In this document: positions 6,306 through 44,260 of the stretch, one piece after another | Layout: each line of letters begins with the position of its first letter | Position numbering within the stretch: position 1 is the stretch's first letter | IMG/VR virus record: IMGVR_UViG_3300025723_000069 | Span: 1 to 44,260 of that record | DNA length: 44,260 nt | Strand: one strand, 5' to 3' | DNA from: a virus | Lineage: Duplodnaviria > Caudoviricetes | Position numbers and translations under genes: made by a program | Notes under the pieces: model-generated | What the model was told of the DNA's origin: nothing | The model's input: only the letters and a program-made list of their open reading frames with translations | Databases searched by the model: none

Positions 6306-6325
6306 TTGTATGCTCCTTTTTTGTC

Positions 6326-9250: not shown

Positions 9251-9281
9251 TTTAAAAACTCCTTAGTGGATTACTTTGTTT

Positions 9282-9316
9282 TATTTAGTCGCGTATCCAA
9301 AAAAAATCCATAAATA
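9282..9316. promoter_or_regulatory. Divergent TAAATA motifs: minus 9282-9287 (sheath) and plus 9311-9316 (HNH-like gene)
   Basis: Both motifs lie in the intergenic region; the sheath gene also has SD AAGGAG. Confidence 0.6.
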
Positions 9317-9346
9317 TCATGATATAAAAAGGGCATAAAAGGGCAC

Positions 9347-10356: not shown

Positions 10357-10378
10357 AGCATCCCTTAATTGATACTAT

Positions 10379-10407
10379 AATTTATTACAATTAGATTATG
10401 ATGTCAA
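10379..10407 (-). promoter_or_regulatory. Sigma70-type promoter for the dNMP kinase
   Basis: Minus strand TTGACA-N17-TAAATT upstream of the ATG at 10356. Confidence 0.7.
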
Positions 10408-10423
10408 TATTTTATTAGCCAAT

Positions 10424-11191: not shown

Positions 11192-11196
11192 ATCGA

Positions 11197-11212
11197 TATT
11201 TAGCGATAAATA
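11197..11212. promoter_or_regulatory. Back-to-back late promoter pair TATTTA-GCGA-TAAATA
   Basis: Inverted TAAATA motifs 4 nt apart between the two divergent neck genes. Confidence 0.75.
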
Positions 11213-11233
11213 ACACTAACCAGGAGAACTAAA

Positions 11234-12439: not shown

Positions 12440-12440
12440 A

Positions 12441-26100: not shown

Positions 26101-29100
26101 AAAGGATCCAGTATTGGCTGCATATAACGAACCACCAATACCTACACCACCTGCGACAATCAATGCACCAGTATATGTCGATGTGCTGACATTGGTACTT
26201 AATATACTTGCTGTGGTTAGAACTGTTAGAGTATTATTAGTCTCTGCACCATAGACATAGAGATTTTGTCCAATTCCAACACCACCTGCAACAACCAATG
26301 CACCTGTTACTGTGCTGGTACTTGGGGTTGTATTACTGATAATGAAAGTTGATGTAGTACCAGTAGTTACAGGGTTGATATAACTTTGAATTGTAGCAGA
26401 TGTAATGAATGCCTGCCCTTGGACTGAAATAGTTCCAACTACAGTTAAACTACCGCCAATGGTTGCACTGCTACCAACATTCAATGCACCGCCAATTCCA
26501 ACACCACCAGGTACAGTTATAGCACCTGTAGTAGTCGACGTTGAAGTAACTGTGCCAGCTAAATTAATAACTCCAGCCTGTATAGTACCTGTGGCAAATA
26601 AACTATTAACACCAGCAATATTACCGTTAGCACCTACAATATTAACAGTGCTGAATGATCCTGTACCTACAGCACTAATAACACCACCGCTGTATATATT
26701 ACCACCAACACCAAGTCCGCCGGCTACAACCAATGCACCATTTGTAGAAGTTGTACTGGTAGATGTATTGGTAATATTGATTGCATTGGTAGTTGTAGAT
26801 CCCCTATTGGTAATTGTCTGTAGTGTGCTTGAATTAGCAATGTACACACCATTGGTACTAGTGAATACCGAAGTATCAGTACCAGCAAGAATACCAGCGG
26901 CTACATATGGATTAACCAAACTAAAGATAGTTGCAGTTGAAAGTATAGATCCACCTGCGACAAATAAACTACCACCAACAAATAAATTGCCTCCAATTCC
27001 TAGGCCACCTGCAACAGTAACCGCACCTGTTGTAGTTGAAGTTGAATTGGCTAGGCTAGTAACAGTAACTGTACTAGCATAGATAGTACCCGATGAGAAA
27101 ATTGCAGTAACATTGCTGATAGCACCGCCGCCACCTGTAATGGTAAGAGTATTAATTGCTAACGTACCAGCAAGATTTAAGTTTCCACCAATACCGACAC
27201 CACCTGCTACTATTAGTGCACCTGTAGTAGTTGATGTTGAACTTGTTGTGTTAGTAATGTTGAATATACTAGCAGTACCTGTACTACTACCGCCACCGGC
27301 TGCATAGTTACCAATTGTAGCAGTGGTAATAATCTGTGCACCTGCAATGTAACTGGTATTTGCAATATAAACATTTCCACCAATACCTACACCACCAGTA
27401 ACAACCAATGCACCGGTAATTGTCGATGTTGATGTTGCAGTTCCAGTGACTGATATTGCATTGGCAATTATTGTACCTGTGGCATTTATACTACCAACAC
27501 CAGTAATATTGCTACCGCCACTACCTGTAATAGATATGGCAGCAAATGTACCAGTACCACCAACGTATAAATTACTACCAATACCAACACCACCTGCAAC
27601 AGTCAATGCACCTGTGGTAGTTGAAGTTGAAGTTGCTGTTCCACTGAAATACCCAGTTCCTGCAACTGTCACTAATCCTGTAGCTGGATTAATAGTAAAA
27701 CTACTTGTGGTATATTCAGCTTGATAATTTGCTGTATTATTGTTAGCATTGACAAATACAGGATAGTAAGTTCCAGCGGCAAATTGTGCCTGCGTTTGAA
27801 CATAAATTGTATTTGTGGCTGTTCCTGCACTTACACCGGCTAATGGTTGCCAAGTTGCAGTAGAACCATTAGATGTTAAAACATAATTATTCAATCCAAT
27901 TGGAATGAATGCAGTAGTGCCGGTGCCGCTTTGAATTGGTATACTACCTGCCGCACCGCCCGCAATGTTAGTAGTTGTGTTACTGCTTGCACCTAATAAA
28001 TTACCACCGCTATAGATATTTCCACTAACATTTAAATTGCCACCAACGCCAACACCGCCGGTAATTATTAATGCCCCAGTGTTTGTAGAAGTAGACTGTG
28101 TTGAACTTGTAACAAATATTGTATTGGCTGTGATTGTACCGGTAGCAGAAATATTAGTAACACCTGTGATATTACTGCTGCCAGATCCTGTAATAACAAT
28201 AGCATTGAATGTACCAGTTCCACCAACATTAATATTGCCGCCGATACCAACTCCGCCAGCAACAACTAATGCTCCCGATGCAGTGTCAATACTAGGAGTA
28301 GTATTAGTAATTGTGAATATGTCTGGTGATGTAACTAGTGTTTGAGTAACTGTTGTATAGCTAACTGTTAATGATGCCGCAGTAATACTGCCGCCAACGT
28401 ACAAATTACCACCAATTCCAACTCCACCAGCAACTGTCAATGCACCTGTGGTAGTTGAAGTTGATTGTGAAGTATTAGTAAAATTAACAGTTCCACCAGT
28501 TATTCCACTGAATGTACCAGTATTTCCAGCAAGTCCCTGTAATCCTTGAACGCCTTGAGTACCTTGATTGCCTTGGAGACCTTGAGTACCTTGAATAGAT
28601 ACACCTTGAACACCTTGAATTCCCTGACTACCGATAAGGCCCTGAATGCCTTGTAGGCCTTGAACGCCCTGAACACCTTGCGTACCAGTACCACCGACAA
28701 ATCCAGCTTGTCCCTGTAGTCCCTGCAATCCTTGAACGCCTTGACTGCCAGTTTGCCCTTGTAGGCCCTGAATACCTTGTGTACCAGTACTACCTGTAAA
28801 TCCACTTATACCCTGAACACCTTGAACTCCCTGGCTACCAGTTTGGCCTTGGGTTCCTTGAATACCATTACCACCTTGTAGGCCTTGCGTACCTTGACTA
28901 CCAGTTTGCCCCTGTAGTCCTTGCGTACCTTGACTACCAGTTTGCCCCTGTAGTCCTTGCGTACCTTGACTACCAGTTTGCCCCTGTAGTCCTTGCGTAC
29001 CTTGTGTTCCTTGACTACCAGATCCCTGTGTTCCTTGTACACCCTGTGTCCCTGTACCTCCATAGGCACCTACAGTAGCGGTAGTTAAGATAACTGCTCC

Positions 29101-32100
29101 GCCAATATAGCCAGTATTTGCTACGTATAAATTGCCGCCAATTCCAACGCCACCTGCAACAGTCAATGCACCAGTTGTAGTACTGATACTTTGAGTAGTA
29201 TTAGTAATTGTGAATATGTCTGGTGATGTAACCAGTGTTTGAGTAATTGTTGTATATTGTACAGTTAATTGGTTAGCAGTAATTGTACCACCGACATATA
29301 AATTTCCACCAATTCCAACTCCACCTACAACAGTCAACGCACCTGAATTAGTACTTGTACTAATTGTTGAATTATTAATATTAACTGTAGATGTTGTAGT
29401 ACCAGAGAAGAAACCAGTTTGACCTTGTAATCCTTGTGTTCCTTGTAGACCTTGAGCGCCTTGTAATCCCTGTACTCCTTGAGTACCCTGATTGCCCTGG
29501 AGTCCTTGAGTACCTTGGGTTCCTTGATTGCCTTGTAAGCCCTGAACACCCTGTGTTCCTTGTAAGCCCTGGAGTCCTTGAGCTCCCTGAGTACCTTGGG
29601 TTCCTTGCAGACCTTGTAGGCCTTGACTACCAGTTTGACCTTGTAGTCCTTGTGGCCCTTGTACACCTTGGAGTCCTTGCAGGCCTTGACCTCCTATACC
29701 TCCAACAAATCCTTGTAAACCCTGAACACCTTGAGGTCCTTGAATACCTTGTAGGCCCTGTGTACCTTGCAAGGCTACACCTTGAACACCTTGAACACCT
29801 TGTAGGCCTTGGAGCCCTTGTGATCCTAATTGTCCCTGTAGGCCTTGGAGCCCTTGCAAACCTTGTGCACCTAAAAGGCCTTGGAGCCCTTGAAGTCCTT
29901 GTGATCCACTACGTCCTTGTGGACCTTGAACACCTTGACTTCCAATATCTCCTTGTAACCCTTGAACACCCTGTGCTCCCTGTAAACCTTGATTGCCCTG
30001 AAGTCCTTGAGATCCCTGAGTACCTTGATTGCCTTGTAACCCCTGTGTGCCTTGTACGCCCTGCAGTCCTTGCAAGCCCTGTTGACCTTGTCCAGAATAT
30101 CCACCAACTGTAGCAGTAGTGACAATCTCATTAGCACCAATATATCCATGTCCGATTATATATAGAGTATTAACTGTAGCATTGGTTGCTGTAATTCCTC
30201 CACCGACGTATAAATCTTGTCCAATTCCCGCACCGCCGACTACTGTTAGAGAACCATTTGTTGATGTTGTGGCATTAACTCCACTGGTGATCACGGTATT
30301 GCTGACATTCAAATTGCCACCAATTCCAACTCCGCCACTTACTGTCAGTGCACCTGTTGTGGTACTGATACTTTGAGTGGTATTTGTAATTGTAAATATG
30401 TCTGGCGATACAACAGTAGTTTGAGTAATTGTAGTATATTGTACAGTTAATTGATTAGCGACAATAGCACCACCAACATACAAATTACCACTAACTGCCG
30501 CACCACCAAATACTTGTAATGCACCTGTAGTAGTTGATGTTGCCGAAGTAGTGTTAGTGACATACAATGTACCATTGTTGACAGCTAAATTACCAGAAAC
30601 TGCACTGTCACCGGCAACAGCCATACCGCCACCAGCAACTTGAAAACTCTGTAGTCCACCAGATGCTGTACTTGCAGTACCAATATTATTGACATTAAAT
30701 CCATAGATACTAGCATAAGCAATTTGCGTACCACCAGCACCCAATATTGTCTGTCCAGATAATCCAGGTGCATTTACAATAGTATTATTATTAGTAACCT
30801 GTAGGGTATAGTTGTTGACATTTCGATTTACACCGCCAGAATATATGTATTGATTAGCACCTAATATAAGGTTACCGCTGGCAATTAATGTTGTAAATGT
30901 ACCGGTACTTGCAACAATGTTACCAATTTGTGTATTTTGTATTCCACCACCGGCATATAATGCACCACCTATACCAACTCCACCTTTAACAGTTAATGCT
31001 CCAGTTGCCGTTGAGCTTGCTGTAGCAGTTGAATTGATTGTAGTCGTGCCTGTTGAAAATGTTGCCAACAGTGTTGTGTTTGGTCCGCCGGCGTATAATG
31101 ATAATTGATCATCTGGGCCAACACTTATTCTGCCAAGGCCAGTAACATAATCAACAACAATACCGTCGGTATATGCACCAGTGAATGTGTTTGTAGCATA
31201 CAGTCCATTTGCGGCTGTTATGTATGAACCAGCATTGATATTTCCAGTAATTGAAATATTAGTAGCAGTTATATTACCGCCAACATTTAAGTTACCACCA
31301 ACACCTACCCCACCACTGACAGTCAATGCACCATTTGTAGTACCTGTGCTTGCTGTTGCATTGGTAATATTAATTGCATTGGTAGTTGTAGCACCTCTAC
31401 CTGTTATAGTTTGTAGTGTACTAGTATTTGATATTGTAACAATGCCAGTATTTGTATTAACTGAAATATCTGTACCAGCAGTAATACTAGCAACACCGAA
31501 TGTTCCAATGGTAGCAGTTGTTAAGATCTGTGAACCAGCGACATAACTGGTTGCACCAGCATATAATGCACCGCCAATACCTACACCACCAGCAACAGTT
31601 AATGATCCCGAAGTTGTAGAAGTTGAAACTATGTTAGCAACTACATTTACATTACCAGAATTATTGATTACTAGACTACTTGTAGCACCAGCACCTACAG
31701 TACCGATAGTAAAGGACGAACCGTTCATACTAAACGGTGCATAAGTAGATCCAGCACTATTTAGGCTGGTAATATTGTTATTTCCAGCGGAACTTCCTAC
31801 TGTAAATGCCCACTGATCGCCTGAACCAGAACCTTTTAATGTTAATGCATATTGATTACCAGTTCCGTTTTCTGTAATTGTTAATGCTGAAGCATTTAAC
31901 GATCCTGCGGCATATATATTGCCGCCAACTCCGACTCCACCAGCTACAGTTAATGCTCCAGAAGTAGTATTTGTACTTTGAGTATTATTATTAATGTTTA
32001 CGGTAGCAGTAGTTGTACCAGAGAATATACCAGTTTGACCTTGTAGGCCCTGAACGCCCTGTAGTCCTTGAACACCTTGATTTCCCTGTAAGCCTTGAGT

Positions 32101-35100
32101 TCCCTGTATTGCTACACCTTGAACACCTTGGAGTCCTTGAGTCCCCTGTGTTCCTTGGTTACCTTGTGTTCCTTGTAAGCCCTGTACACCTTGAAGTCCT
32201 TGGAGTCCTTGAGTCCCCTGTGTTCCTTGGTTACCTTGTGTTCCTTGTAAGCCCTGTACACCTTGATTGCCTTGGAGTCCTTGATTGCCTTGGAGTCCTT
32301 GAACGCCTTGACTACCAGTCTGACCTTGAGTACCTTGGAGTCCTTGGCTGCCAGTTTGACCTTGAGTACCTTGAACTCCCTGGATTCCTTTTTCGCCTTG
32401 TAGGCCTTGAACTCCCTGAATACCTTGACTTCCAATAAGTCCTTGTAGACCCTGAACACCCTGAGTACCAGTATTTCCAAGTCCTGAATAAGATCCAACA
32501 GTAGCAGTGGTAATAATAACAGCACCACCAATATAACCGGTATTTGCTACATATAATGCACCTCCGATACCAACACCGCCAGCAACAGTCAATGCACCTG
32601 TAGAGGTTGACGTTGCAGTAGTGGAACCAGTAACTGATATTGTATTTGCACTAATTGTTCCAGTAGCACTGATATTAGTAACACCGGTAATATTACTGCT
32701 ACCAGAACCAGTTATAACAATGGCATTAAATGTACCTGTACCACCGACATTTACATTACCGCCAATTCCTACACCACCAGCAACAGTTAAAGCTCCTGTT
32801 ATGGTGCTAACACTAGGTGTTGTATTGGTAATTGTGAATATGTCTGGTGATGTAACCAGTGTTTGAGTAACTGTTGTATAACTAACCGTCAACGTGGCAG
32901 CAGTAATATTACCGCCGACTACTAAATCTCCACCAATTCCAACTCCACCGGCAACTGTTAATGCACCTGTAGTAGTCGAAGTAGCGCTGGTAAAGTTATT
33001 AATGTTAACAGTAGCGGTAGTAGTTCCAGAAAATACGCCAGTTTGACCTTGAATACTGGTTCCTTGAACACCTTGACTACCAGCACTGCCTTGGGTTCCA
33101 ATTAATCCTTGAATACCCTGACTACCAGTCTGCCCTTGAGTACCTTGAACTCCTTGGATTCCTTTTTCGCCTTGCAGGCCTTGAACGCCTTGCAGGCCTT
33201 GAACGCCTTGATTTCCTAGTAATCCTTGCAAACCCTGAACGCCTTGAGTACCAGTATTACCAATTGATCCGCTGTAACCTTGTGTTCCTATTAATCCCTG
33301 AACACCTTGATTGCCCTGGAGTCCCTGTAGTCCTTGTGCACCTAATAATCCTTGAACACCTTGTAGTCCTTGTGTACCTAATAATCCTTGTGCTCCTGTG
33401 TGTCCTTGAACGCCTTGTAATCCCTGTGATCCTTGAACGCCTTGTAATCCCTGTGATCCTTGTAATCCCTGTGATCCTTGAACGCCTTGTGGACCAAGTC
33501 CGGCATATGTTCCAATAGTAGCAGTAGTAATGATTTTAGCACCATCAATATAACTAGTATCTGCTACATATAATGCACCTCCAATACCTACACCACCAGC
33601 AACGGTTAGCGCACCAGTTGTAGGTGATATAGAAGCAGTCGATGCTGTGACTATAATTCCAGGTGAAGATAAAGTATAAGCAGTATCATCCCAATAAAGT
33701 GATCCGTTTACATTGATGGGAACTGTATTATCATATGAATTTGCCATAGTAAGATAGAAATCACCACCAGCATTTCTATCTTCAATAGTTTGTTGCACAT
33801 AAACATTATTAGCGTTGGTTGCAGTTGTACTAGAAATACTACTACTTGCAACCCAAGTTGCTGTGGTTCCATCACTATATAAAACTGTTCCAAGACCACC
33901 GAGTGGTACAAATGACGTATGACCTGGTGCACTCTGTATAACTAAAGATCCTGCATCACCGCCCGCAATATTAGTAGCAGTATTACTACTTACTCCCAAT
34001 AATGAACCGTTGCTATATATGTTTCCGGCATATATATTGCCGCCAACTCCTAGACCACCTGCAACTGTTATAGCACCAGATGTTGTCGAAGTTGAATTTA
34101 TATTTGATTGAACAACTATCTTACCAGGTACTGTTAACTTTCCATCAGCACCATATGTAAGTGTTCCGCCATTGGTAACAAATTGAATAGTAGCGGTAGT
34201 TCCTTGAGTTTGTAATGTTAGTCCGGTACCGCCATCAACAGTAAGACTATGATTAACTCCACTTTCTTGTATATAGGAACCATAAGCCCAATTTAATCTA
34301 TTATCATTAGTAAGATTAATATTTCCAGTAATATTGGCATCACCACCAATATTGGTAGAGCCACCAATATTCAATGCACCACCAATACCGACACCACCAG
34401 CAACAACTAATGCACCACTGCTGGTACTATAGCTAACCATTGTATTGGTAATAGTGAATATGTCCGGAGATGTTACTAGTGTTTGGGTAATTGTTGTGTA
34501 CTGTATTGTTAGTTGTTGCGCAGTAATAGTACCGCCAACAAACAAATTACCACCAATACCTACACCACCACTAACTGTTAACGCACCAGTATTGGTAGAT
34601 GTTGTGGCAGTAGAGTTATTAATATTAACTGTGGCAGTAGTAGTTCCAGAGAATACACCAGTTTGACCTTGTAGTCCCTGAACACCTTGCAAGCCCTGAA
34701 CGCCTTGCAAGCCCTGAACGCCTTGACTGCCAATAGTGCCTTGAACACCTTGCACCCCTTGCAATCCCTGAGTACCTTGATTGCCTTGTAAACCTTGTAG
34801 GCCCTGAACACCCTGACTACCAACAGCACCTTGCAATCCCTGCACACCTTGTGTACCGGTTGTACCAATTGATCCGCCATAGCCCTGAACACCAAGTTGT
34901 CCTTGAACACCTTGATTTCCTTGTAAGCCCTGTAGGCCTTGAACACCTTGACTACCACCAGCACCCTGTAAGCCCTGAACACCCTGTGATCCGGTACCAC
35001 CTTGGACTCCTTGAGTCCCTTGTGATCCAATACTACCTTGAGTCCCTTGATTTCCTTGTAGGCCTTGAGTCCCTTGATTTCCTTGTAGTCCCTGCGAGCC

Positions 35101-36891
35101 AGTGCCACCCTGGATGCCTTGAACACCTTGTGTTCCTTGTGATCCAGTAACTCCTTGTGATCCAGTACTTCCTTGTACGCCCTGTGAACCAACACTGCCT
35201 TGAGTTCCTTGAACACCCTGTGCGCCTTGTAATCCTTGACTACCAATAGTTCCTTGCAATCCCTGTACGCCTTGCGGACCCAGTCCTGCATAAGTTCCAA
35301 TGGTTGCGGTGGTAACAATTACTGCACCACCAATGTAACTAGTATTGGCTATATATACAGTACCGCCGATTCCGACTCCGCCCGCAACAGTTAGAGCACC
35401 GGTAGCAGTTGATGTTGCTGTTGTAATGCTAGTAACTGATATAGTATTTGCACTAATTGTTCCTGTGGCAGAAATATTAGTAACACCTGTGATGTTACTA
35501 CTACCAGATCCTGTGATGACAATAGCATTGAATGTACCAGTGCCGCCAACATTGACATTTCCGCCAATTCCTACACCACCCGCAACAGTTAAAGCACCCG
35601 TTGTAGTACTAATACTTTGAGTAGTGTTGGTTATGGTGAATATGTCTGGAGATGTTACCAGTGTTTGGGTAATTGTTGTGTACTGAATAGTTAGTTGTTG
35701 AGCAGTGATACTACCCCCGACTACTAAATTACCACCAATTCCTACTCCGCCGACTACTGTTAATGCACCAGTTGATGTACTTGTTGCACTGGTAGAATTA
35801 TCGATATTAACTGTACTTGTGGTCGTCCCGGAAAAAATACCGGTTTGCCCTTGAATACCTTGAACACCCTGGGTTCCTTGTGATCCAGAAACACCCTGTG
35901 ATCCAGTAACACCTTGTATACCTTGTGTTCCTTGCACCCCTTGCAAGCCCTGAACGCCTTGGAGACCTTGCAACCCCTGTAAGCCCTGAACGCCTTGGTT
36001 ACCTTGAAGTCCTTGAACACCCTGGGTTCCTTGTGTACCAGTTGTACCAATTGATCCCCCATAACCTTGAACACCGATTTGTCCTTGAACACCCTGGTTG
36101 CCTTGCAAACCCTGTGTTCCCTGAATGCCTTGTAAGCCCTGAACACCTTGATTGCCTTGAAGTCCTTGAACACCCTGTGTTCCAAGTTGCCCCTGTACAC
36201 CTTGCGAGCCAGTACCGCCTTGCACACCTTGAACCCCTTGAGTGCCTTGTGCACCAATCGCACCTTGCACACCTTGGGTGCCTTGAACACCTTGATTGCC
36301 TTGCAAGCCCTGGAGACCTTGGGCGCCTTGTGTTCCTTGACTACCAATAACACCTTGAGTGCCTTGATTACCTTGAAGTCCTTGGACTCCCTGAACACCT
36401 TGGGTACCTGTATTACCAATTAATCCTTGAACACCCTGTGTTCCTTGACTACCGACTTGACCTTGTGTTCCTTGGACTCCCTGAACACCTTGCGATCCAA
36501 TAGCACTTTGGACTCCTTGACTACCAATACCGCCTTGTGTGCCTTGCAGTCCTTGAGCTCCTTGACTACCAGTACCGCCTTGAGCTCCTTGGACACCCTG
36601 AGGACCTAGACCTGCATAAGAACTAATTGTAGCTGTGGTGATGATTGTTGCACCAGCAATAGTACTGGTTTGAGCAATATTGACTGCTCCACCAATTCCA
36701 ACACCACCAGCAACTACTAATGCCCCAGTTTGAGTATTAGTGCTGGGTGTAGTGTTTAAGACATTTAAATAATTTGTGGCTGTAACAGTTCCAGCTACCC
36801 TTGTCCACGCACTGGCACTAGAACTATAGGTATATGTAATGCCGTTTAATACTGCCGTTTGGCCATTGATAGGGTTACTTGGAAAGCTCAT
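23140..36891 (-). CDS. Giant fibre protein (4583 aa) with six Gly-X-Gln collagen blocks and Thr/Gly-rich repeats
   Basis: Single ORF; starts MSFPSNPING and ends AAAAAMAIALGM; many STxTGALxVxGGVGIGG units. Confidence 0.9.
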   Translation of the reverse strand: MSFPSNPINGQTAVLNGITYTYSSSASAWTRVAGTVTATNYLNVLNTTPSTNTQTGALVVAGGVGIGGAVNIAQTSTIAGATIITTATISSYAGLGPQGVQGAQGGTGSQGAQGLQGTQGGIGSQGVQSAIGSQGVQGVQGTQGQVGSQGTQGVQGLIGNTGTQGVQGVQGLQGNQGTQGVIGSQGTQGAQGLQGLQGNQGVQGTQGVQGAIGAQGTQGVQGVQGGTGSQGVQGQLGTQGVQGLQGNQGVQGLQGIQGTQGLQGNQGVQGQIGVQGYGGSIGTTGTQGTQGVQGLQGNQGVQGLQGLQGLQGVQGLQGVQGTQGIQGVTGSQGVSGSQGTQGVQGIQGQTGIFSGTTTSTVNIDNSTSATSTSTGALTVVGGVGIGGNLVVGGSITAQQLTIQYTTITQTLVTSPDIFTITNTTQSISTTTGALTVAGGVGIGGNVNVGGTGTFNAIVITGSGSSNITGVTNISATGTISANTISVTSITTATSTATGALTVAGGVGIGGTVYIANTSYIGGAVIVTTATIGTYAGLGPQGVQGLQGTIGSQGLQGAQGVQGTQGSVGSQGVQGSTGSQGVTGSQGTQGVQGIQGGTGSQGLQGNQGTQGLQGNQGTQGSIGSQGTQGVQGGTGSQGVQGLQGAGGSQGVQGLQGLQGNQGVQGQLGVQGYGGSIGTTGTQGVQGLQGAVGSQGVQGLQGLQGNQGTQGLQGVQGVQGTIGSQGVQGLQGVQGLQGVQGLQGQTGVFSGTTTATVNINNSTATTSTNTGALTVSGGVGIGGNLFVGGTITAQQLTIQYTTITQTLVTSPDIFTITNTMVSYSTSSGALVVAGGVGIGGALNIGGSTNIGGDANITGNINLTNDNRLNWAYGSYIQESGVNHSLTVDGGTGLTLQTQGTTATIQFVTNGGTLTYGADGKLTVPGKIVVQSNINSTSTTSGAITVAGGLGVGGNIYAGNIYSNGSLLGVSSNTATNIAGGDAGSLVIQSAPGHTSFVPLGGLGTVLYSDGTTATWVASSSISSTTATNANNVYVQQTIEDRNAGGDFYLTMANSYDNTVPINVNGSLYWDDTAYTLSSPGIIVTASTASISPTTGALTVAGGVGIGGALYVADTSYIDGAKIITTATIGTYAGLGPQGVQGSQGLQGSQGLQGVQGSQGLQGVQGHTGAQGLLGTQGLQGVQGLLGAQGLQGLQGNQGVQGLIGTQGYSGSIGNTGTQGVQGLQGLLGNQGVQGLQGVQGLQGEKGIQGVQGTQGQTGSQGIQGLIGTQGSAGSQGVQGTSIQGQTGVFSGTTTATVNINNFTSATSTTTGALTVAGGVGIGGDLVVGGNITAATLTVSYTTVTQTLVTSPDIFTITNTTPSVSTITGALTVAGGVGIGGNVNVGGTGTFNAIVITGSGSSNITGVTNISATGTISANTISVTGSTTATSTSTGALTVAGGVGIGGALYVANTGYIGGAVIITTATVGSYSGLGNTGTQGVQGLQGLIGSQGIQGVQGLQGEKGIQGVQGTQGQTGSQGLQGTQGQTGSQGVQGLQGNQGLQGNQGVQGLQGTQGNQGTQGTQGLQGLQGVQGLQGTQGNQGTQGTQGLQGVQGVAIQGTQGLQGNQGVQGLQGVQGLQGQTGIFSGTTTATVNINNNTQSTNTTSGALTVAGGVGVGGNIYAAGSLNASALTITENGTGNQYALTLKGSGSGDQWAFTVGSSAGNNNITSLNSAGSTYAPFSMNGSSFTIGTVGAGATSSLVINNSGNVNVVANIVSTSTTSGSLTVAGGVGIGGALYAGATSYVAGSQILTTATIGTFGVASITAGTDISVNTNTGIVTISNTSTLQTITGRGATTTNAINITNATASTGTTNGALTVSGGVGVGGNLNVGGNITATNISITGNINAGSYITAANGLYATNTFTGAYTDGIVVDYVTGLGRISVGPDDQLSLYAGGPNTTLLATFSTGTTTINSTATASSTATGALTVKGGVGIGGALYAGGGIQNTQIGNIVASTGTFTTLIASGNLILGANQYIYSGGVNRNVNNYTLQVTNNNTIVNAPGLSGQTILGAGGTQIAYASIYGFNVNNIGTASTASGGLQSFQVAGGGMAVAGDSAVSGNLAVNNGTLYVTNTTSATSTTTGALQVFGGAAVSGNLYVGGAIVANQLTVQYTTITQTTVVSPDIFTITNTTQSISTTTGALTVSGGVGIGGNLNVSNTVITSGVNATTSTNGSLTVVGGAGIGQDLYVGGGITATNATVNTLYIIGHGYIGANEIVTTATVGGYSGQGQQGLQGLQGVQGTQGLQGNQGTQGSQGLQGNQGLQGAQGVQGLQGDIGSQGVQGPQGRSGSQGLQGLQGLLGAQGLQGLQGLQGQLGSQGLQGLQGVQGVQGVALQGTQGLQGIQGPQGVQGLQGFVGGIGGQGLQGLQGVQGPQGLQGQTGSQGLQGLQGTQGTQGAQGLQGLQGTQGVQGLQGNQGTQGTQGLQGNQGTQGVQGLQGAQGLQGTQGLQGQTGFFSGTTTSTVNINNSTISTSTNSGALTVVGGVGIGGNLYVGGTITANQLTVQYTTITQTLVTSPDIFTITNTTQSISTTTGALTVAGGVGIGGNLYVANTGYIGGAVILTTATVGAYGGTGTQGVQGTQGSGSQGTQGTQGLQGQTGSQGTQGLQGQTGSQGTQGLQGQTGSQGTQGLQGGNGIQGTQGQTGSQGVQGVQGISGFTGSTGTQGIQGLQGQTGSQGVQGLQGLQGQAGFVGGTGTQGVQGVQGLQGIQGLIGSQGIQGVQGVSIQGTQGLQGNQGTQGVQGLQGLAGNTGTFSGITGGTVNFTNTSQSTSTTTGALTVAGGVGIGGNLYVGGSITAASLTVSYTTVTQTLVTSPDIFTITNTTPSIDTASGALVVAGGVGIGGNINVGGTGTFNAIVITGSGSSNITGVTNISATGTITANTIFVTSSTQSTSTNTGALIITGGVGVGGNLNVSGNIYSGGNLLGASSNTTTNIAGGAAGSIPIQSGTGTTAFIPIGLNNYVLTSNGSTATWQPLAGVSAGTATNTIYVQTQAQFAAGTYYPVFVNANNNTANYQAEYTTSSFTINPATGLVTVAGTGYFSGTATSTSTTTGALTVAGGVGIGSNLYVGGTGTFAAISITGSGGSNITGVGSINATGTIIANAISVTGTATSTSTITGALVVTGGVGIGGNVYIANTSYIAGAQIITTATIGNYAAGGGSSTGTASIFNITNTTSSTSTTTGALIVAGGVGIGGNLNLAGTLAINTLTITGGGGAISNVTAIFSSGTIYASTVTVTSLANSTSTTTGAVTVAGGLGIGGNLFVGGSLFVAGGSILSTATIFSLVNPYVAAGILAGTDTSVFTSTNGVYIANSSTLQTITNRGSTTTNAINITNTSTSTTSTNGALVVAGGLGVGGNIYSGGVISAVGTGSFSTVNIVGANGNIAGVNSLFATGTIQAGVINLAGTVTSTSTTTGAITVPGGVGIGGALNVGSSATIGGSLTVVGTISVQGQAFITSATIQSYINPVTTGTTSTFIISNTTPSTSTVTGALVVAGGVGIGQNLYVYGAETNNTLTVLTTASILSTNVSTSTYTGALIVAGGVGIGGSLYAANTGSFGTVIVVGTGGSITGVNSVFATGTVATSILTASSSATSTSTTTGAVIVTGGVGIGGNLNVGGSTSTFSGSVTINNTLTINGQLIVGGAALITTATVGTVISSALTATTSTLVISNITQSTGTNSGALQVTGGVGIGGNLYVGNFGSFNTLTVLTTASILGTNVSTSTYTGALVVAGGVGIGGNLYVANTGSFAQVSIVGYGGSITGVNNIFATGTVTAPVLLATSSATSTSTTTGAVIVTGGVGIGGNLNVGGSTSTFSGSVTINNTLTINGQLIVGGAALITTATVGTVISAALTATTSTFVINNTTQSTSTNTGAFQVTGGVGIGGNIYIGGAETNNTLTVLTTASILGTNVSTSTYTGALIVAGGVGIGGSLYAANTGSFGTVVVVGTGGSITGVNNIFATGTVTAPVLLATSSATSTSTLTGAVIVTGGVGIGGNLNVGGSTSTFGGSVTVNNVLTVGGSIILAGAALITTATVGSYIATALTATTATFVINNTTQSTSTNTGAFQTTGGVGIGGNLYVGNFGSFNTLTVLTTASILGTNVSTSTYTGALVVAGGVGIGGSLYAANTGSFGTVVIVGTGGSITGVNNIFSTGTITAPVLLATSSATSTSSLTGAVIVTGGVGIGGNLNVANSGTFGGSLTVTNILTVGGSIILAGAALVTTATVNTYVAAALTATTATVLISNITQSTGTTTGALQVTGGVGIGGNIYIGGAATNNTLTVLTTATILGTNISTSTYTGALIVAGGIGVNGSIYAANTGSFATVNITGNGGSISGVYNIYATGTVYAAAYNLNTTATFAISNTTSSTSTTTGALTVAGGVGIAGNLYVAGGITAQQLTILYTTITQTTVVTPDIFTITNTTQSIGTYSGALTVAGGVGIAGNLYASNIYTNGAQILPTTIQEFTMLQGQSTCTVAGGFVANQLQVFANGVLLNSGDYNASTSPYVVLNTARNAGDVIRIVASQNFAQAISQTAAAAAMAIALGM
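23880..26290 (-). repeat. 573-bp (191-aa) tandem repeat, a little over four units
   Basis: Anchor ttagaactgt recurs at 24498, 25071, 25644 and 26217 (period 573), with a diverged copy at 23928 (570). Confidence 0.9.
28519..36606 (-). repeat. Six collagen-like (Gly-X-Gln)n blocks: 28519-29052, 29416-30087, 32032-32478, 33040-33495, 34660-35280, 35842-36606
   Basis: 9-bp periodic ccttg/ccctg pattern translating to GLQ, GVQ, GTQ, GNQ and GSQ. Confidence 0.95.
28883..29004. repeat. Perfect 36-bp tandem repeat x3 plus a partial copy
   Basis: ccttgcgtaccttgactaccagtttgcccctgtagt at 28883, 28919 and 28955. Confidence 0.95.
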
Positions 36892-36897
36892 AATATG

Positions 36898-36903
36898 TAT
36901 TTA
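36898..36903 (-). promoter_or_regulatory. Putative late promoter TAAATA
   Basis: 6 nt upstream of the ATG at 36891, no SD. Confidence 0.7.
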
Positions 36904-36946
36904 CCGTTCTTGAAAAGATACGGTTATGTTTGCAATTTGCCGTATT

Positions 36947-37909: not shown

Positions 37910-37920
37910 TTATAATCTCC

Positions 37921-40900
37921 TTAAAACTGTGCTAAAGATGCTAGTACAGTATAAGCAGGTGTTGCCGCAGTTTTAATGATAGTATACGTATACGAGTCAA
38001 TTCCATTTATATATCCACTAGATGGAGCTGATCCGCCTTGCCAATAAACAGTAACATTACTCGACGAACCATCAATTGTTAATGTACCATTCATATAGTA
38101 AGCAGGTGATCCCTGTTTAGCAAGAATGGCAATACTTGCTGATTGTCCAACTGCAAGAACAGAATTTAATGTAACACCAGAACTGTATGTTAAATTCTGT
38201 GTCCAGTTAGCACCAGCATTGCTTGTATAGTATGTAACGGCTCCAGGAGTAAAGTAAGCTGTTGGAGTTGAGTTAACTGCACCGGCAATCACATTCACTG
38301 TTTCGTAGATGTTAGATATTGCCAGCGTTCCGCCAACACTTAAATTACCGCCAATACCAGCACCACCAGTTACAGTCAATGCACCAGTATTAGTACTTGT
38401 ACTTGCTGTTGCACTTGTAATGTTAACAGCGTTTGACACGGTGCCACCAGTAAATGATGCACCACCGCCTCCAGCATTGGCTATGGTAGGACCTGTAATG
38501 TCTAACCAATAAGAATTAGTACCATCGCTGGTATATCTGTAGATATCATCAGTTAATGTATCATACCAAATATCACCAACTGTGGCATTTGCAGGTGCAG
38601 TACTTGTACTCGACGACCGTACACCGCCACCAACAATAGTACCACCAATATTTAAGTTACCGCCTATACCAACCCCGCCTGCAACAGTCAACGCACCTGT
38701 TCCAGTACCTAAACTCTGTGTAGTATTGGTAATTGTGAATATGTCTGGCGAAGTAACTAAAGTTTGTGTAACCGTAGTATAGCTTACTGTTAATGTCGCC
38801 GCTGTGATATTACCGCCAACAACTAAATCTCCGCCAATTCCAACACCACCTGTGATTCGTAATGCACCTGTATTTGTTGAAGTTGCGGCAACTGCAGATG
38901 TTACAACAACACTACCGGATCCTTTTGGAGTAACAACAATATTAACACTAGCATCAGTACCAGTAGAACCTAATATTGCACCACTACCACTTGCGGCACC
39001 TGCTACGGTTATATAGTTTGTATTGCCTGCTTGTTGTGTGTTAAGAACTTGGAAGTTTGTTGCAACACCCGGAGTAGCACTGGTACTGCCGTTGAATGTA
39101 ATATTACCAGATCCGCCACCACCGATAATTAATCCTGTTGTAGATTCACCACCGGCTCTAATTACACCGTTACCGCCTGTACCTGCACCAATTAATTGTA
39201 CATAGTTAGCGTTGTTAGCACCAGCTGTTAGTGTACTGCCGGCATATAATTGACCGCCAACTCCAGCACCACCAGCAACAACTAACCCACCTGTAGTAGT
39301 TGAACTAGCGGCTATTGTTGAATTAATCGAAAGTTGACCAACAAATGTTGAACTATTTCCAACATTTAATGTACCGCCAATATTACCATTTCCAGCAACA
39401 CCTAGTCCACCAGCAATAGTTAATGCACCAGTTGTTGTACTTGTACTGGCCAAAGTTGAAGTTATGCTAACTTGTGATTGGAATGTTGAAGTATTTCCAA
39501 CATACAAACTACCACCAATACCTGCACCACCTGCTACAATTAATCCACCAGAATTAGTGCTAGTACTAGCAGTTGTTCCTGTGCTGTAAATTGCCACAGC
39601 ACTCAAATATCCGTTGGTATTAGATATTAACAATCCGCCAACATCGAGTGTACCACTACTGACATATAGAGTTTTAAATCTCTTTGTAGGTGATCCTAAG
39701 CTGTATGTATCGCTTACAGTAGGCAGTAGATCTCCACCTAATGTCAGTGTGTTATTAATACTGACTAAACCACCAATATTAACATTGCCACCAATTCCAA
39801 CACCGCCTGTAACAACCAATGCGCCTGTTGTAGTCGAAGTTGACTGTGCACCTGAAACAATTGAAGTAGTACCAGTACTAAACGTTGCCAATAAAGTACC
39901 AGCAGGGCCACCTGAGTAGAATGATAATTGATCATCTGGGCCAACACTAACACGACCACGTCCAGTAGCATAATCAACAATAATACCATCACTATAAGTT
40001 CCAGTGAACGTATTAATTGAGTAGAAACCATTATTTGCAGTTACATATCCGCCAACATTAATAGCCCCGCCAATTCCTACACCGCCAACTACTTGTAATG
40101 CACCAGAATTAGTTGATGTTGAAATTGTACCATTGGAAATTACTAGATTACCACTATCGAATCCGCCACCGGATAACAATGTTAATGATGTAGCAGTAAT
40201 TGCTCCACCAACATATAATCCACCGCCAACACCAACTCCACCTGTAACAGTTAATGCACCGGTGTTAGTTGATGCAGTACCAGTTCCACTTTGTACTGCT
40301 AATGTTCCTTGATCTGTTTCGCTACTTGTTAAGACGATTGATGTAGCAGTAATTACTCCACCAACAACTAATCCTCCACCAATTCCAACTCCACCACTAA
40401 CAGTTAATGCACCAGAACTAGTTGATGCAGAACCAGTAAAGTTATTGATATTAACAGTAGCTGTAGTTGTTCCAGAGAATACACCAGTTTGTCCTTGTAA
40501 GCCTTGGACACCTTGTAAGCCCTGAACCCCTTGATTGCCTTGTAAACCCTGTGTTCCTTGTATTGATACACCCTGGACACCCTGGACACCTTGCAATCCC
40601 TGAACACCTTGGTTACCTTGTAAGCCCTGTGTTCCCTGAGTACCTTGCAATCCCTGAACACCTTGGTTGCCTTGAAGTCCCTGAGTACCTTGAAGTCCTT
40701 GAACTCCCTGTAGTCCCTGAGCACCTTGTAGGCCTTGGGTTCCTTGAACACCTTGTAAGCCCTGCAAACCCTGAATACCTTGTGGGCCTAGGCTAGCGTA
40801 TACACCAATCGTAGCAGTGGTTAAGATTACTGCTCCAGCAACATAGCTGGTAGTATTGACGTATAATGCACCACCGATACCAACACCACCAGCAACAGTC

Positions 40901-43900
40901 AATGCACCAGTTGTTGTCGATGTAGCAATTGTACTACTAGACAATGCCATATTACCGGCAAACACAGTACCTGTGGCATATAAATTATTAACGCCACCGA
41001 TGTTACTGCCACCACCACCACCACTAATTCCAGATACTACAATAGCATTGAATGTACTGGTTCCAAAGACATTTAAATTACCGCCAATACCAACACCGCC
41101 ATTGACTACCAATGCACCTGTAGTTGTTGAATTTGATTGTAGATTTGAATTAATTGTATTGGTGCTACTGCTGAATGTTGCTACCAATGTTCCAGCTGGT
41201 CCACCAGTGTATAATGAAAGTTGATCATCTGCACCAACACTAATTCTACCATTTCCAGTGGCATAATCAACAATAATACCATCACTGTATGATCCAGTAA
41301 ATGTATTGATTGAGTAGAAACCATTATTTGCAGTGATATAACTACCGGCGTTGATATTACCACTTATTCCAACACCGCCTGCAACTATTAATGCACCTGA
41401 TGTAGCATTGGTACTGGTTGTTGAACTAACTAGGATGATATTACCAGTTTTGAATGTTCCGTATCCAGCACCAGCAAATGTACCAGTACTTGATTCAGCA
41501 CCAGTATTATACCATTCCAAATATTGACTATCATCTGCTAATACCAGTGCGGCATTACTATCAGTACTGGCTGTTCGATTAAAATAATGGAAACGGAGTC
41601 CAATATCTTTACCGTCATCAACTGTCCACTGTCCGTATACTCCGCCCGGAGGAGTATGAACTTCAATAATATTATCTGTATAGAACGTATTGGTACTCAA
41701 TACATAAGTAGCACTACCACTAAATGTTACTGGTCCTGCAAATGTTGTTGCACCAGCTACAGATAAGTACCCTCCTACGTTTACATTACCACCTACACCA
41801 ATACCTCCAGCAACTACAACAGCACCTGTAGTAGTACTAACACTTTGAGTTGTATTGGTTACATTAACTGTACTGGTAGTAGTTCCAGAGAAACTACCAG
41901 TTTGACCTTGTAAGCCTTGTAATCCCTGTAGGCCTTGAACGCCTTGGTTACCTTGCAGGCCTTGTGTTCCTTGAATACTAACACCTTGAACACCCTGTAA
42001 GCCTTGTACACCTTGGTTGCCTTGAAGTCCTTGAGCGCCTTGTGTTCCCTGTAAGCCCTGTACGCCTTGGTTGCCTTGTAAGCCCTGTGTTCCTTGTGTT
42101 CCCTGTAAGCCCTGTACGCCTTGGTTACCTTGAAGTCCTTGAGCTCCCTGTGTTCCTTGTAAGCCCTGGACGCCTTGGTTACCTTGAAGTCCTTGAGCTC
42201 CCTGTGTTCCTTGTAGTCCTTGTGTTCCCTGAGTACCTTGTAAGCCTTGTACGCCTTGGGCTCCTTGTAAGCCCTGAACACCTTGGTTGCCCTGCAATCC
42301 CTGAGTACCTTGGTTGCCCTGCAATCCCTGTACTCCTTGAGCTCCTTGTAAGCCCTGAACACCTTGGTTGCCCTGCAAGCCCTGCAAGCCCTGAGTACCT
42401 TGTGGGCCTAAGCTAGCATAAACACCAATCGTAGAAGTAGTTAGAATAACTGAACCGGCAATATAACTAGTTGTGTTGACATACAATGCCCCACCAATAC
42501 CAACACCACCTCCAACAACTAATGCACCTGTAGTAGTTGATATTGCGGCAGCGGTACTTGTAGCAGTAAATGTACCTCCAGTAATTTGTCCAGAAGCAGT
42601 TAAATTAGTAACACCACTAATGTTACCTCCAGAATTGGTTTCATTACCTGCAACTGTAAATGTTCCGCCAACACTTAAATTACCGCCAATACCAACACCA
42701 CCAGCAACAGTCAATGCACCTGTAGTTGTACTCAAACTTTGTGTTGTGTTAGTGATTGTAAAGATGTCTGGTGATGTAACTAACGTTTGAGTAACTGTTG
42801 TATAACTTACTGTTAATGTAGCCGCAGTAATATTACCACCAACATATAAATCGCCGCCAATACCAACACCACCTCCAACAGTTAGTGCACCTGTATTTGT
42901 ACTAGATGTTGCTGTAAAATTAGCAATATTAACGGTAGCGGTAGTAGTTCCAGAGAAGAATCCAGTGTGACCTTGGAGGCCCTGGACGCCTTGCAGGCCT
43001 TGAACTCCTTGATTTCCCTGTAGACCTTGTGTTCCTTGTATCGCTACACCTTGGACACCTTGATTTCCCTGTAAGCCCTGGACGCCTTGGTTACCCTGAA
43101 GTCCTTGGACACCTTGATTTCCCTGTAAGCCCTGGACGCCTTGGTTACCCTGAAGTCCTTGAGCTCCCTGTGTTCCTTGTAAACCTTGGAGTCCTTGAGC
43201 TCCCTGTGTTCCTTGTAAGCCCTGTACTCCCTGAGCACCTTGAGTTCCTTGATTACCTTGGAGTCCTTGAGCTCCCTGTGTTCCTTGTAATCCTTGAAGT
43301 CCTTGTGCCCCTTGAAGTCCTTGAGCTCCCTGTGTTCCTTGTAAGCCCTGGACGCCTTGGTTACCTTGAAGTCCTTGAGCTCCCTGTGTTCCTTGTAAGC
43401 CCTGGACGCCTTGGTTGCCCTGCAATCCCTGAGTACCTTGGTTGCCCTGCAATCCCTGTACGCCTTGGGCTCCCTGTAGTCCTTGAACTCCCTGATTGCC
43501 CTGCAATCCCTGTAGGCCTTGAATACCTTGTGGCCCTAAACTAGCATAAACACCAATTGTAGCAGTAGTTAAGATTACCGCGCCTGCAACATAACTGGTT
43601 GTATTAGCATACAATGCTCCGCCAATTCCAACACCACCTGCAACAACCAATGCTCCTGTTGTAGTCGATGTTGCGGCAGTAGAACTGGTGATACTTATAT
43701 TACCAGCAATTACAGTTCCTGTAGCATAGATATTGTTAACGCCAGAGATGTTATTATTGCTAGATCCTGTAACAACTAATGACTGGAATGTACCAGTACC
43801 AGCAACATTTAAATTGCCACCTACTCCAACACCTCCGGATACTACCAATGCACCAGATGAAGTACTTAAACTTTGTGTAGTGTTGGTAATTGTAAATATA

Positions 43901-44260
43901 TCTGGTGATGTAATCAGCGTTTGTGTAACTGTTGTATAACTAACCGTCAAAGTAGCCGCAGTAATATTACCGCCAACAAACAAATCACCACCAATTCCAA
44001 CTCCACCACTAACAGTTAATGCACCAGAACTAGTTGATGTAGCACTAGTGAAATTATTGATATTAACGGTAGCAGTAGTAGTTCCAGAGAAGAATCCAGT
44101 TTGACCTTGTAAGCCCTGAACGCCTTGCAGGCCTTGAACGCCTTGATTGCCCTGTAATCCTTGAGTACCTTGTATTGCTACACCCTGGACACCTTGAAGT
44201 CCTTGTAAGCCCTGAACGCCTTGATTGCCTTGTAATCCTTGAGTGCCTTGATTGCCCTGG
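37921..44260 (-). CDS. Second giant collagen-containing fibre protein, start beyond the right window edge
   Basis: The frame is open from 44259 (QGNQGTQ...), so the track's TTG start at 43983 is internal. It has the same modules as 23140..36891 and a C-terminal domain ending YTVLASLAQF. Confidence 0.9.
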   Translation of the reverse strand, partial: QGNQGTQGLQGNQGVQGLQGLQGVQGVAIQGTQGLQGNQGVQGLQGVQGLQGQTGFFSGTTTATVNINNFTSATSTSSGALTVSGGVGIGGDLFVGGNITAATLTVSYTTVTQTLITSPDIFTITNTTQSLSTSSGALVVSGGVGVGGNLNVAGTGTFQSLVVTGSSNNNISGVNNIYATGTVIAGNISITSSTAATSTTTGALVVAGGVGIGGALYANTTSYVAGAVILTTATIGVYASLGPQGIQGLQGLQGNQGVQGLQGAQGVQGLQGNQGTQGLQGNQGVQGLQGTQGAQGLQGNQGVQGLQGTQGAQGLQGAQGLQGLQGTQGAQGLQGNQGTQGAQGVQGLQGTQGAQGLQGLQGTQGAQGLQGNQGVQGLQGNQGVQGLQGNQGVQGLQGNQGVQGVAIQGTQGLQGNQGVQGLQGVQGLQGHTGFFSGTTTATVNIANFTATSSTNTGALTVGGGVGIGGDLYVGGNITAATLTVSYTTVTQTLVTSPDIFTITNTTQSLSTTTGALTVAGGVGIGGNLSVGGTFTVAGNETNSGGNISGVTNLTASGQITGGTFTATSTAAAISTTTGALVVGGGVGIGGALYVNTTSYIAGSVILTTSTIGVYASLGPQGTQGLQGLQGNQGVQGLQGAQGVQGLQGNQGTQGLQGNQGVQGLQGAQGVQGLQGTQGTQGLQGTQGAQGLQGNQGVQGLQGTQGAQGLQGNQGVQGLQGTQGTQGLQGNQGVQGLQGTQGAQGLQGNQGVQGLQGVQGVSIQGTQGLQGNQGVQGLQGLQGLQGQTGSFSGTTTSTVNVTNTTQSVSTTTGAVVVAGGIGVGGNVNVGGYLSVAGATTFAGPVTFSGSATYVLSTNTFYTDNIIEVHTPPGGVYGQWTVDDGKDIGLRFHYFNRTASTDSNAALVLADDSQYLEWYNTGAESSTGTFAGAGYGTFKTGNIILVSSTTSTNATSGALIVAGGVGISGNINAGSYITANNGFYSINTFTGSYSDGIIVDYATGNGRISVGADDQLSLYTGGPAGTLVATFSSSTNTINSNLQSNSTTTGALVVNGGVGIGGNLNVFGTSTFNAIVVSGISGGGGGSNIGGVNNLYATGTVFAGNMALSSSTIATSTTTGALTVAGGVGIGGALYVNTTSYVAGAVILTTATIGVYASLGPQGIQGLQGLQGVQGTQGLQGAQGLQGVQGLQGTQGLQGNQGVQGLQGTQGTQGLQGNQGVQGLQGVQGVQGVSIQGTQGLQGNQGVQGLQGVQGLQGQTGVFSGTTTATVNINNFTGSASTSSGALTVSGGVGIGGGLVVGGVITATSIVLTSSETDQGTLAVQSGTGTASTNTGALTVTGGVGVGGGLYVGGAITATSLTLLSGGGFDSGNLVISNGTISTSTNSGALQVVGGVGIGGAINVGGYVTANNGFYSINTFTGTYSDGIIVDYATGRGRVSVGPDDQLSFYSGGPAGTLLATFSTGTTSIVSGAQSTSTTTGALVVTGGVGIGGNVNIGGLVSINNTLTLGGDLLPTVSDTYSLGSPTKRFKTLYVSSGTLDVGGLLISNTNGYLSAVAIYSTGTTASTSTNSGGLIVAGGAGIGGSLYVGNTSTFQSQVSITSTLASTSTTTGALTIAGGLGVAGNGNIGGTLNVGNSSTFVGQLSINSTIAASSTTTGGLVVAGGAGVGGQLYAGSTLTAGANNANYVQLIGAGTGGNGVIRAGGESTTGLIIGGGGSGNITFNGSTSATPGVATNFQVLNTQQAGNTNYITVAGAASGSGAILGSTGTDASVNIVVTPKGSGSVVVTSAVAATSTNTGALRITGGVGIGGDLVVGGNITAATLTVSYTTVTQTLVTSPDIFTITNTTQSLGTGTGALTVAGGVGIGGNLNIGGTIVGGGVRSSSTSTAPANATVGDIWYDTLTDDIYRYTSDGTNSYWLDITGPTIANAGGGGASFTGGTVSNAVNITSATASTSTNTGALTVTGGAGIGGNLSVGGTLAISNIYETVNVIAGAVNSTPTAYFTPGAVTYYTSNAGANWTQNLTYSSGVTLNSVLAVGQSASIAILAKQGSPAYYMNGTLTIDGSSSNVTVYWQGGSAPSSGYINGIDSYTYTIIKTAATPAYTVLASLAQF
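40486..44260 (-). repeat. Four collagen-like (Gly-X-Gln)n blocks: 40486-40788, 41899-42408, 42964-43536, 44098-44260 (truncated)
   Basis: Same 9-bp periodicity, with many exact internal duplications. Confidence 0.95.

Follow-up and report, generated by a model that had tools for sequence, protein, structure and literature searches.

The window analysed here is the entire 44,260-base contig of the viral record IMGVR_UViG_3300025723_000069 (guanine + cytosine (GC) content ~40%). It carries two open reading frames (ORFs) for giant paralogous proteins, A and B, the latter cut by the window end, which contain blocks of Gly-X-Y triplets with Gln at most Y positions. In the reading we consider probable, the blocks are cassettes of variable length at one repeated junction of a Thr- and Gly-rich scaffold. 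They would fold as collagen triple helices lengthening a predicted three-chain virion fibre, clamped on both sides by trimer-forming modules.

Gly-X-Gln blocks and their scaffold junction

Exactly ten Gly-X-Y blocks were found, with 564 triplets in total (Table 1); A carries six and B four, and all lie on the minus strand. The Y position is occupied by Gln in 468 triplets (83%), followed by Thr (35) and Ile (17), and the X position by Leu (155), Val (119), Thr (89), Asn (49), Ser (48), Ala (29), Gln (23) and Ile (18). Residues prefer one side: Leu is found 155 times at X and 7 times at Y, Asn 49 times and once, Pro 9 times and never, with Gln and Thr scored as favouring Y. Every Pro (9 of 564 at X, 1.6%) belongs to a GPQ triplet, which opens six of the nine blocks whose start lies inside the window; the remaining three GPQ lie inside block A5. 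Charged residues take 6 of 1128 X/Y positions (0.5%); there are two GEK triplets in all blocks and no KGE or KGD step among the Y-Gly-X steps listed for them. Gly itself makes up 1.8% of X and 0.6% of Y residues. The repeats draw on all four codons for Gly and both for Gln. An earlier note, made from the sequence alone, had described ten blocks with mostly Gln at Y, Pro only as rare GPQ and almost no charge, and these counts bear it out. The low charge is a trait of the entire protein A (62 of 4583 residues, 1.4%), not confined to the blocks; A also has 1 Cys, 42 Pro and 38% Gly + Thr.

The blocks carry Gly at each third residue in runs of 25–74 triplets, and at least six consecutive triplets suffice for a collagen-type sequence. 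The longest unbroken runs are 74 triplets in A and 55 in B, against maxima of 10 and 9 in 1000 shuffles per protein, and the Pfam Collagen family PF01391 matches A (E-value 1.5e-152) and B (7.6e-76) far above the cut-off. The proposal that the blocks are of collagen type without the usual stabilisers holds. A 4-residue break is present in seven of the ten blocks, exactly nine triplets from the block end in six; a 1-residue break occurs in one block, and in one block a Gly is replaced in register. The six blocks of A sum to 1181 amino acids (aa), or 1189 with the tail of block A3, slightly above the about 1165 residues first estimated, and block A6 starts at 28510 rather than 28519. At 0.286 nm per residue they amount to ~340 nm. 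The sum of ~330 nm in the earlier note therefore holds approximately, but not as one continuous helix, as it is divided into six separate pieces of 43–74 nm.

Outside the blocks, A and B consist of tandem Thr-rich, Gly-rich scaffold repeats, 45 copies in A and 18 in B; two further copies occur in the ORF at 17208-18455. The scaffold had no PDB sequence match, and no Pfam family was assigned to five collagen-free segments. A low-confidence all-beta model of the empty module gave no match to solved folds at E ≤ 0.001, which is uninformative. In tblastn searches against cultured phages with the low-complexity filter on, 553 aa of B had no match and the end of A had one weak match.

According to the alignment, each block with a visible start occupies the identical junction between two scaffold repeats. 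Among the 13 junction copies in A, six are filled (179–285 aa to the next repeat), six are empty (28–30 aa) and one measures 58 aa. In relatives the automatic junction count was noisy (40 short, 4 filled and 176 unclassified junctions in 79 proteins), so filled junctions were identified by visual inspection. Between the same pair of flanks, loci L078 and L087 have Pro-poor Gly-X-Gln, L098 has mixed collagen (Pro 0.20 per triplet), L050 and L117 have Pro-rich collagen (Pro 0.53 per triplet in the latter) and L046 has a Tyr/Ser-rich collagen of 151 triplets. No collagen at all was found in 113 of 120 giant scaffold-bearing proteins. Filled and empty junctions, exchange for other chemistries and the many collagen-free relatives together mark collagen as an optional, exchangeable cassette at one repeated scaffold junction. 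The Tyr/Ser type is a second Pro-poor collagen, with Tyr and Ser alternating at X and up to 151 unbroken triplets; it was observed in the related scaffolds of L046 (518-13423), L051, L054, L055 and L084.

The blocks are not an assembly artefact, since independent assemblies and sequencing runs agree: locus L043 is 99.99% identical to the window over 10.9 kb, the upstream gene B was recovered entire in L077, and four further runs cover all 30 bins of 28000-44260. All six in-block strain indels among those listed measure 9, 18 or 27 nucleotides (nt), and L042 lacks 36 nt in block A6, making it four triplets shorter. Among the strain differences listed, 31 of 40 are synonymous overall and 7 of 13 inside blocks, where the remainder keep or restore register. 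At residue 129 of A, the only place in the window where another residue (Ser) replaces Gly in register, two other runs retain Gly.

Where the Gly of a Gly-X-Gln context is replaced in register (counted with related proteins included), the substitute is Ser in 33 distinct contexts, Ala in 29 and Asn in 4, and no other residue; Arg, Val, Asp, Glu and Cys, which make up ~70% of the single-base neighbours of Gly, are absent. Among 150 representatives at 50% identity, 66 of 85 in-register replacements are Ala or Ser, compared with ~30% expected from single-base changes. As in a collagen core, Gly is replaced almost only by the smallest residues.

A three-copy model of block B4 with its flanks (window 40000-40977) scored 0.55, against 0.00 for the best of three controls; in the calibration, 20 of the 30 solved homo-pairs attained the pass mark, as did 1 of 23 single chains. 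Three-copy runs showed contact agreement of at least 88% and a predicted local confidence (pLDDT) of at least 65. Confident contacts cover residues 5-57 and 170-322, i.e., both flanks only. The model therefore favours flanks of three chains and gives no information on the helix: each flank adjacent to the block is predicted to be a trimerisation domain, the flanks forming an intertwined homotrimer. The best ESM Atlas score was 0.87, to collagen-like viral clusters and below the mark.

Probable triple helix and competing readings

A triple helix is probably the fold of the blocks, being favoured by four indirect tests: the Gly register, the Ala/Ser-only replacement in the core, the exchange with Pro-rich collagen at the same site and the modelled three-chain flanks. 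The flanks would gather three parallel chains and fix both ends of each cassette. With clamps every 35–86 triplets, the helix could be stable enough in fresh water without Pro, hydroxyproline (Hyp) or salt bridges, Gln serving as a tolerated polar residue at Y and neighbouring Leu/Val at X adding packing. Each cassette would add 30–75 nm at 0.29 nm per residue, a quarter of the residues of A supplying the summed length given above, and the short breaks would act as kinks. The T4 long fibre gains ~0.05 nm per residue; the length per residue of the cassettes would be several times that of such a beta-fibre and would give a longer reach towards host cells. Three-stranded rods held in this manner by their flanks would be a common form of collagen construction.

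Several points weigh against this reading. The helix is unsupported by confident model contacts: no low-error contact is named in the block (residues 64-167), an unnamed residue being merely uncertain. Single-chain AlphaFold2 models of the filled and the empty module are poor (pLDDT 48.7 and 42.6), and the three-copy mark was calibrated on two copies and other alignments. Pro and KGE/KGD salt bridges, on which the known collagens of phages and bacteria depend, are both absent here (PMC3368898, PMC11923368). Unbroken runs of 370 and 468 triplets exist in relatives without this scaffold, so clamps are not the whole answer for the class, and most giant scaffold relatives have no collagen. Whole-triplet indels are equally expected from slippage in 9-nt repeats, and Ala/Ser-only replacement reveals tight Gly packing, not the identity of the fold. 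Finally, the presence of A and B in the virion and their attachment site are putative.

The attachment site leaves room for an alternative compatible with a triple helix, namely that A and B form whiskers on the head or sheath, of the kind seen on "hairy" jumbo myoviruses, rather than baseplate tail fibres; we consider this a tangible possibility, though the less probable placement. The scaffold repeat matches phrog_3018, labelled head decoration (E-value 5.5e-42), and several giant paralogous genes stand in tandem. Phage CBB, among the nearest cultured phages by sheath, bears 119-nm sheath hairs with no gene assigned (PMC5259590), and the capsid hairs of phAPEC6 look trimeric (PMC7247149). 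However, the available text of both papers mentions collagen 0 times, the blocks match PHROG tail-fibre families (by low-complexity matches), PHROG labels are annotations, and searches of cultured hairy phages with the low-complexity filter on yielded no homologue of the scaffold.

It is unlikely that the cassettes are flexible, mostly unfolded three-chain tethers between trimeric modules, collagen-derived or only transiently helical. Such tethers would explain why none of the usual helix stabilisers is present, why block length varies freely between strains, why cassettes are optional and why pLDDT over the block is 34–47 in the single-chain model. A loose chain, however, needs neither Gly at each third residue over 40–74 triplets nor Ala/Ser-only replacement; Pro-rich collagen occupies the same site, and the hydrophobic X residues would promote aggregation if unfolded.

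More improbable still is a chain that folds on itself or packs as a polyproline-II bundle, a beta-solenoid or an amyloid-like Gln zipper; the product would be compact beads or a thick cable rather than an extended triple helix. Richness in Gln, Asn, Thr, Val and Leu is typical of self-associating chains, and the small-residue constraint suits any tightly packed Gly layer. Gly-rich bundles are used at phage fibre tips, but in such bundles the Gly content exceeds one third and rises with neighbours, the helices are short and connected by loops, and antiparallel packing is preferred (10.1101/2023.11.25.568672). Here Gly is scarce at X and Y, unbroken runs span tens of triplets, no turn motifs interrupt runs of 40–468 triplets, a period of three is ill-suited to beta strands, and the flanks are predicted to hold three parallel chains.

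That Pro poverty is a by-product of an AT-rich genome (window GC ~0.40, Pro codons being GC-rich), or that the repeats are a functionless artefact of assembly or slippage, with block lengths differing between assemblies, is very hard to sustain given the agreement of independent assemblies, the codon usage, the strain differences that are synonymous or keep or restore register, and a Pro content (0–0.77 per triplet) independent of flanking GC across 32 scaffold loci (rho 0.14, p 0.45), on which GC bias was rejected as the cause. Copies of this same phage (L042, L043, L076, L077, L079 and L082) were excluded when relatives were counted for the GC and aromatic tests.

Stability, relatives and known collagens

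For the clamped triple helix, the flanks are a better supported source of stability than any special Gln/hydrophobic chemistry. A bolder proposal is that Gly-X-Gln stabilises the triple helix by itself, as a third way next to Pro/Hyp and salt bridges. In this view, Gln at Y would pack across chains on the Leu or Val of the next X, the pair of positions used by KGE/KGD salt bridges, and phages would build stable neutral rods of hundreds of nm, swapped as plug-in rulers of reach. We regard this as doubtful. The one hint of such a chemistry in the sequences is that Leu/Val follow Gln in 262 of 457 Y-to-next-X steps; after a non-Gln Y they occur in 2 of 55 distinct contexts, 38 having Ser/Thr. This coupling is no proof of interchain geometry because positions inside one triplet are coupled just as strongly (0.33 vs. 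0.26 bits for the window; the highest coupling position in 20 vs. 17 of 40 representatives). Gln-aromatic pairing is weak, with an excess in 27 of 44 proteins; aliphatic X is in excess in 78 of 95. Host-guest work ranks Leu, Asn and Phe as poor at Y and Gln as fairly good. Collagens of all chemistries in the scaffold loci are low in charge (median 0.03 charged residues per triplet).

The 4-residue breaks of collagens are said to read small-then-hydrophobic. All seven breaks in the window follow this pattern; relatives mostly have Asn there (112 of 122 in the IMG/VR loci), and no paper stating the rule was found in the open-licence literature, so it is given little weight. Published work provides points of reference: 4-residue breaks are tolerated in collagen, Hyp, Arg and Met are named best at Y (both PMC10765305), a Pro-free Gly6 tract between clamps forms a helix (PMC13673506), and Y-Gly-X pairs such as KGE/KGD form interchain i to i+2 salt bridges (PMC11923368).

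The earlier note suggested looking for GXQ-dominated collagens in other phages, and many were found. A 13-residue motif identified 41 loci on 34 IMG/VR contigs, where 45 of 51 distinct collagen ORFs have at least 60% Gln at Y and at most 10% Pro. With these thresholds, 49 of 113 collagen-bearing protein hits qualify, as do 31 of 138 representatives at 50% identity, 7 of them at the window's own strictness. Gly-X-Gln chemistry is thus widespread in uncultured phages, not rare. No published Gly-X-Gln, Gly-Xaa-Gln, GXQ or Gln-rich Pro-poor collagen was found among the matches listed from the open-licence literature, subscription papers and supplements lying outside the scope of this search.

Among these relatives, L021 (4733-17107) and L005 (9296-13840) encode Gly-X-Gln stretches that continue without a break for 468 and 370 triplets, Gln making up 99–100% of Y; both exceed the 330 triplets given for human chains. 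The Gln-rich collagens of L039 (1-4503) and L022 (8138-11968) have many aromatic X residues (Phe, Trp, Tyr), which possibly form amide-aromatic pairs. In 185,579 genomes the motif was found at 11 loci (L065-L075) on contigs of 0.7–6.6 kb in four freshwater-type bins, mostly of freshwater Betaproteobacteria including Polynucleobacter. These short contigs are likely binned pieces of phage DNA and at best a faint hint of the host, so no host is called from them.

Of the known systems, the side-tail proteins EPclA/EPclB of E. coli O157:H7 prophages have been shown to be trimeric and triple-helical with a 2.88 Å rise (PMC3368898). They likewise are phage-encoded Gly-X-Y proteins without Hyp, with trimerising flanks, Pro at X and Gln/Thr at Y; the side preferences of Pro, Gln and Thr in the blocks are those of known prokaryotic collagens (PMC3368898). 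However, their X position is 48% Pro and 36% Asp/Glu and their Y position 31% Lys/Arg and 14.5% Gln, and they hold one short domain in place of six cassettes in a beta-type scaffold of 4583 aa (PMC3368898). Neither the Pro-rich X of EPclA/Scl2-type collagens (22–48%; PMC3368898) nor their KGE/KGD or Asp/Glu-X plus Lys/Arg-Y pairs are found here. Streptococcal Scl2 and other bacterial collagens are also free of Hyp and nucleated by a trimerising domain, with polar hydration networks credited; they differ in being stabilised by Pro (~12%) and charge pairs, KGE/KGD being called general across life and highest in viruses (PMC8968730, PMC4066190, PMC11923368).

Similar in composition are SCRM01_020 and SCRM01_023 of the cultured freshwater myovirus Synechococcus phage S-CRM01 (NC_015569.1), annotated as collagen triple helix repeat/tail fiber proteins, with Gln-rich Y, Thr/Phe/Asn/Val at X, few charges and similar small Trp-containing end domains. 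Unlike A and B, they have GPQ regularly through the repeat, measure 376–578 aa and show no Thr/Gly scaffold repeats. We know of no structural test of these proteins. P-SSM2 orf028, a collagen-like putative tail fibre, and "Bacteriophage collagen" share long Gly-X-Y repeats, a place in myovirus fibre clusters and an assumed trimeric state; their X/Y are described as often Pro, Ser or Thr, and the available text does not describe a Gln-dominated Pro-poor type (PMC1079782). The (Gly-Ala-Ser)n repeat of Burkholderia Bucl8 is likewise natural, free of Pro and charge, variable in copy number and attached to a trimeric protein anchor; circular dichroism of (Gly-Ala-Ser)19 at 25 °C showed a triple-helix peak, though a shallow one (PMC7682875). 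In contrast to the cassettes, it has 6–38 triplets of small residues, is clamped at one end and belongs to a bacterial outer-membrane protein (PMC7682875). Judged by these comparisons, the proteins would act like known phage collagen fibres, having the sequence traits of collagen-like proteins but neither the Pro at X nor the charge pairs.

Genomic setting and significance

The window encodes the virion module of an uncultured freshwater myovirus. By Pfam and PHROG matches, this module comprises the terminase, head closure and tube-like genes together with a sheath of 974 aa, its stabiliser and neck proteins. The closest cultured sheaths come from the jumbo phages Phosso, fHe-Yen9, XbC2, CBB and Paride (33–49% identity). 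Of the 20 sequencing runs holding the window stretch, 19 are labelled freshwater or freshwater sediment, and no RNA dataset is listed among them; five of the runs may be the source. Genes A and B sit in this structural module among other fibre genes and are likely fibre-forming. Protein A has a small N-terminal Trp domain, the scaffold repeats with six cassettes and a collagen-free C-terminal part of 1789 aa. Locus L077 contains B in full (~2356 aa), including the N-terminal domain that A also has, and places a third paralogue in tandem upstream of B. The 320-aa ORF between B and A is likely a fibre-associated accessory protein.

Table 1. Coordinates of features in the window
Feature	Coordinates	Strand	Basis or remark
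Myovirus structural genes, including two tube-like genes	3..13841	.	Pfam, PHROG, sheath comparison
ORF A, giant fibre-type protein, 4583 aa	23140..36891	-	PF01391; PHROG tail-fibre collagen families
Collagen-free part of A with six empty junction copies (28–30 aa vs. 179–285 aa filled)	23140..28509	-	Junction census
Block A6, aa 2608-2794, 6 + 47 + 9 triplets	28510..29070	-	Block scan
Block A5, aa 2269-2495, 35 + 40 triplets	29407..30087	-	Block scan
Block A4, aa 1472-1623, 41 + 9 triplets	32023..32478	-	Block scan
Block A3, aa 1133-1287, 49 triplets + 4-residue break + two triplets	33031..33495	-	Block scan
Block A2, aa 538-747, 70 unbroken triplets	34651..35280	-	Block scan
Block A1, aa 96-353, 258 aa, one in-register Gly-to-Ser	35833..36606	-	Block scan
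Gly- and Cys-rich ORF between B and A, 320 aa	36947..37909	-	PF21722 below cut-off; phrog_4474, E-value 2.8e-28
ORF B, fibre-type paralogue of A, 5′ cut by window end	37921..44260 (ORF 37921-44259)	-	2112 aa seen
Block B4, 25 + 9 triplets	40477..40788	-	Block scan; modelled with flanks, 40000-40977
Block B3, 48 + 9 triplets; 42 + 9 in L077	41890..42408	-	Block scan, L077
Block B2, 55 + 9 triplets	42955..43536	-	Block scan
Block B1, cut by window end; 65 + 9 triplets in L077	44089..44256	-	Block scan, L077

Further features were observed in the neighbouring genes. The 320-aa protein and that at 15733-17211 (minus strand), the latter with a fibronectin III domain, are Gly-rich, Cys-containing proteins of PF21722 type among fibre genes and are candidates for polyglycine-bundle tips. 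A small Trp-containing module (Pro-x-x-Pro ... Gly-Asp-x-Trp type) recurs in sheath, neck and fibre proteins (6326-9250, 11294-12439, 17208-18455 and 37921-38600); a related module opens A, B and the ORF at 14503-15672 and is present in S-CRM01 genes 12, 13 and 23. These modules are possibly docking points of a branched fibre network. Within the fibre cluster, a 2OG-Fe(II) oxygenase (PF13759) and an 85-aa ORF lie on the opposite strand at 18537-19507 (plus strand); the oxygenase may modify virion proteins. The terminase large subunit (3-1847, minus strand) carries an intein-type LAGLIDADG homing-endonuclease insertion (PF14528 at aa 282-333). The two tandem tail-tube-like genes (4521-5603 and 5670-6305, minus strand) match phrog_4542, one being extended to 360 aa.

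What these sequences newly indicate is that each Gly-X-Gln block fills one repeated scaffold junction and that a Gln-dominated, Pro-poor type extends the known phage collagen fibres. For how long collagens of non-animal origin keep their fold without Hyp or chaperones is described as an open question, for which salt bridges have been proposed as the general answer (PMC11923368). The Gly-X-Gln blocks directly test this rule because neither Pro nor charge is present. Since some copies of the same junction are empty, others hold Gly-X-Gln and those of relatives can harbour Pro-rich or Tyr/Ser collagen, the effect of the clamps can be separated from that of triplet chemistry, and the built-in natural controls of this locus make collagen stability a testable question. 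A neutral, unmodified, bacterially made collagen could serve as a biomaterial part, and the scaffold illustrates how phages may tune fibre length by cassette insertion.

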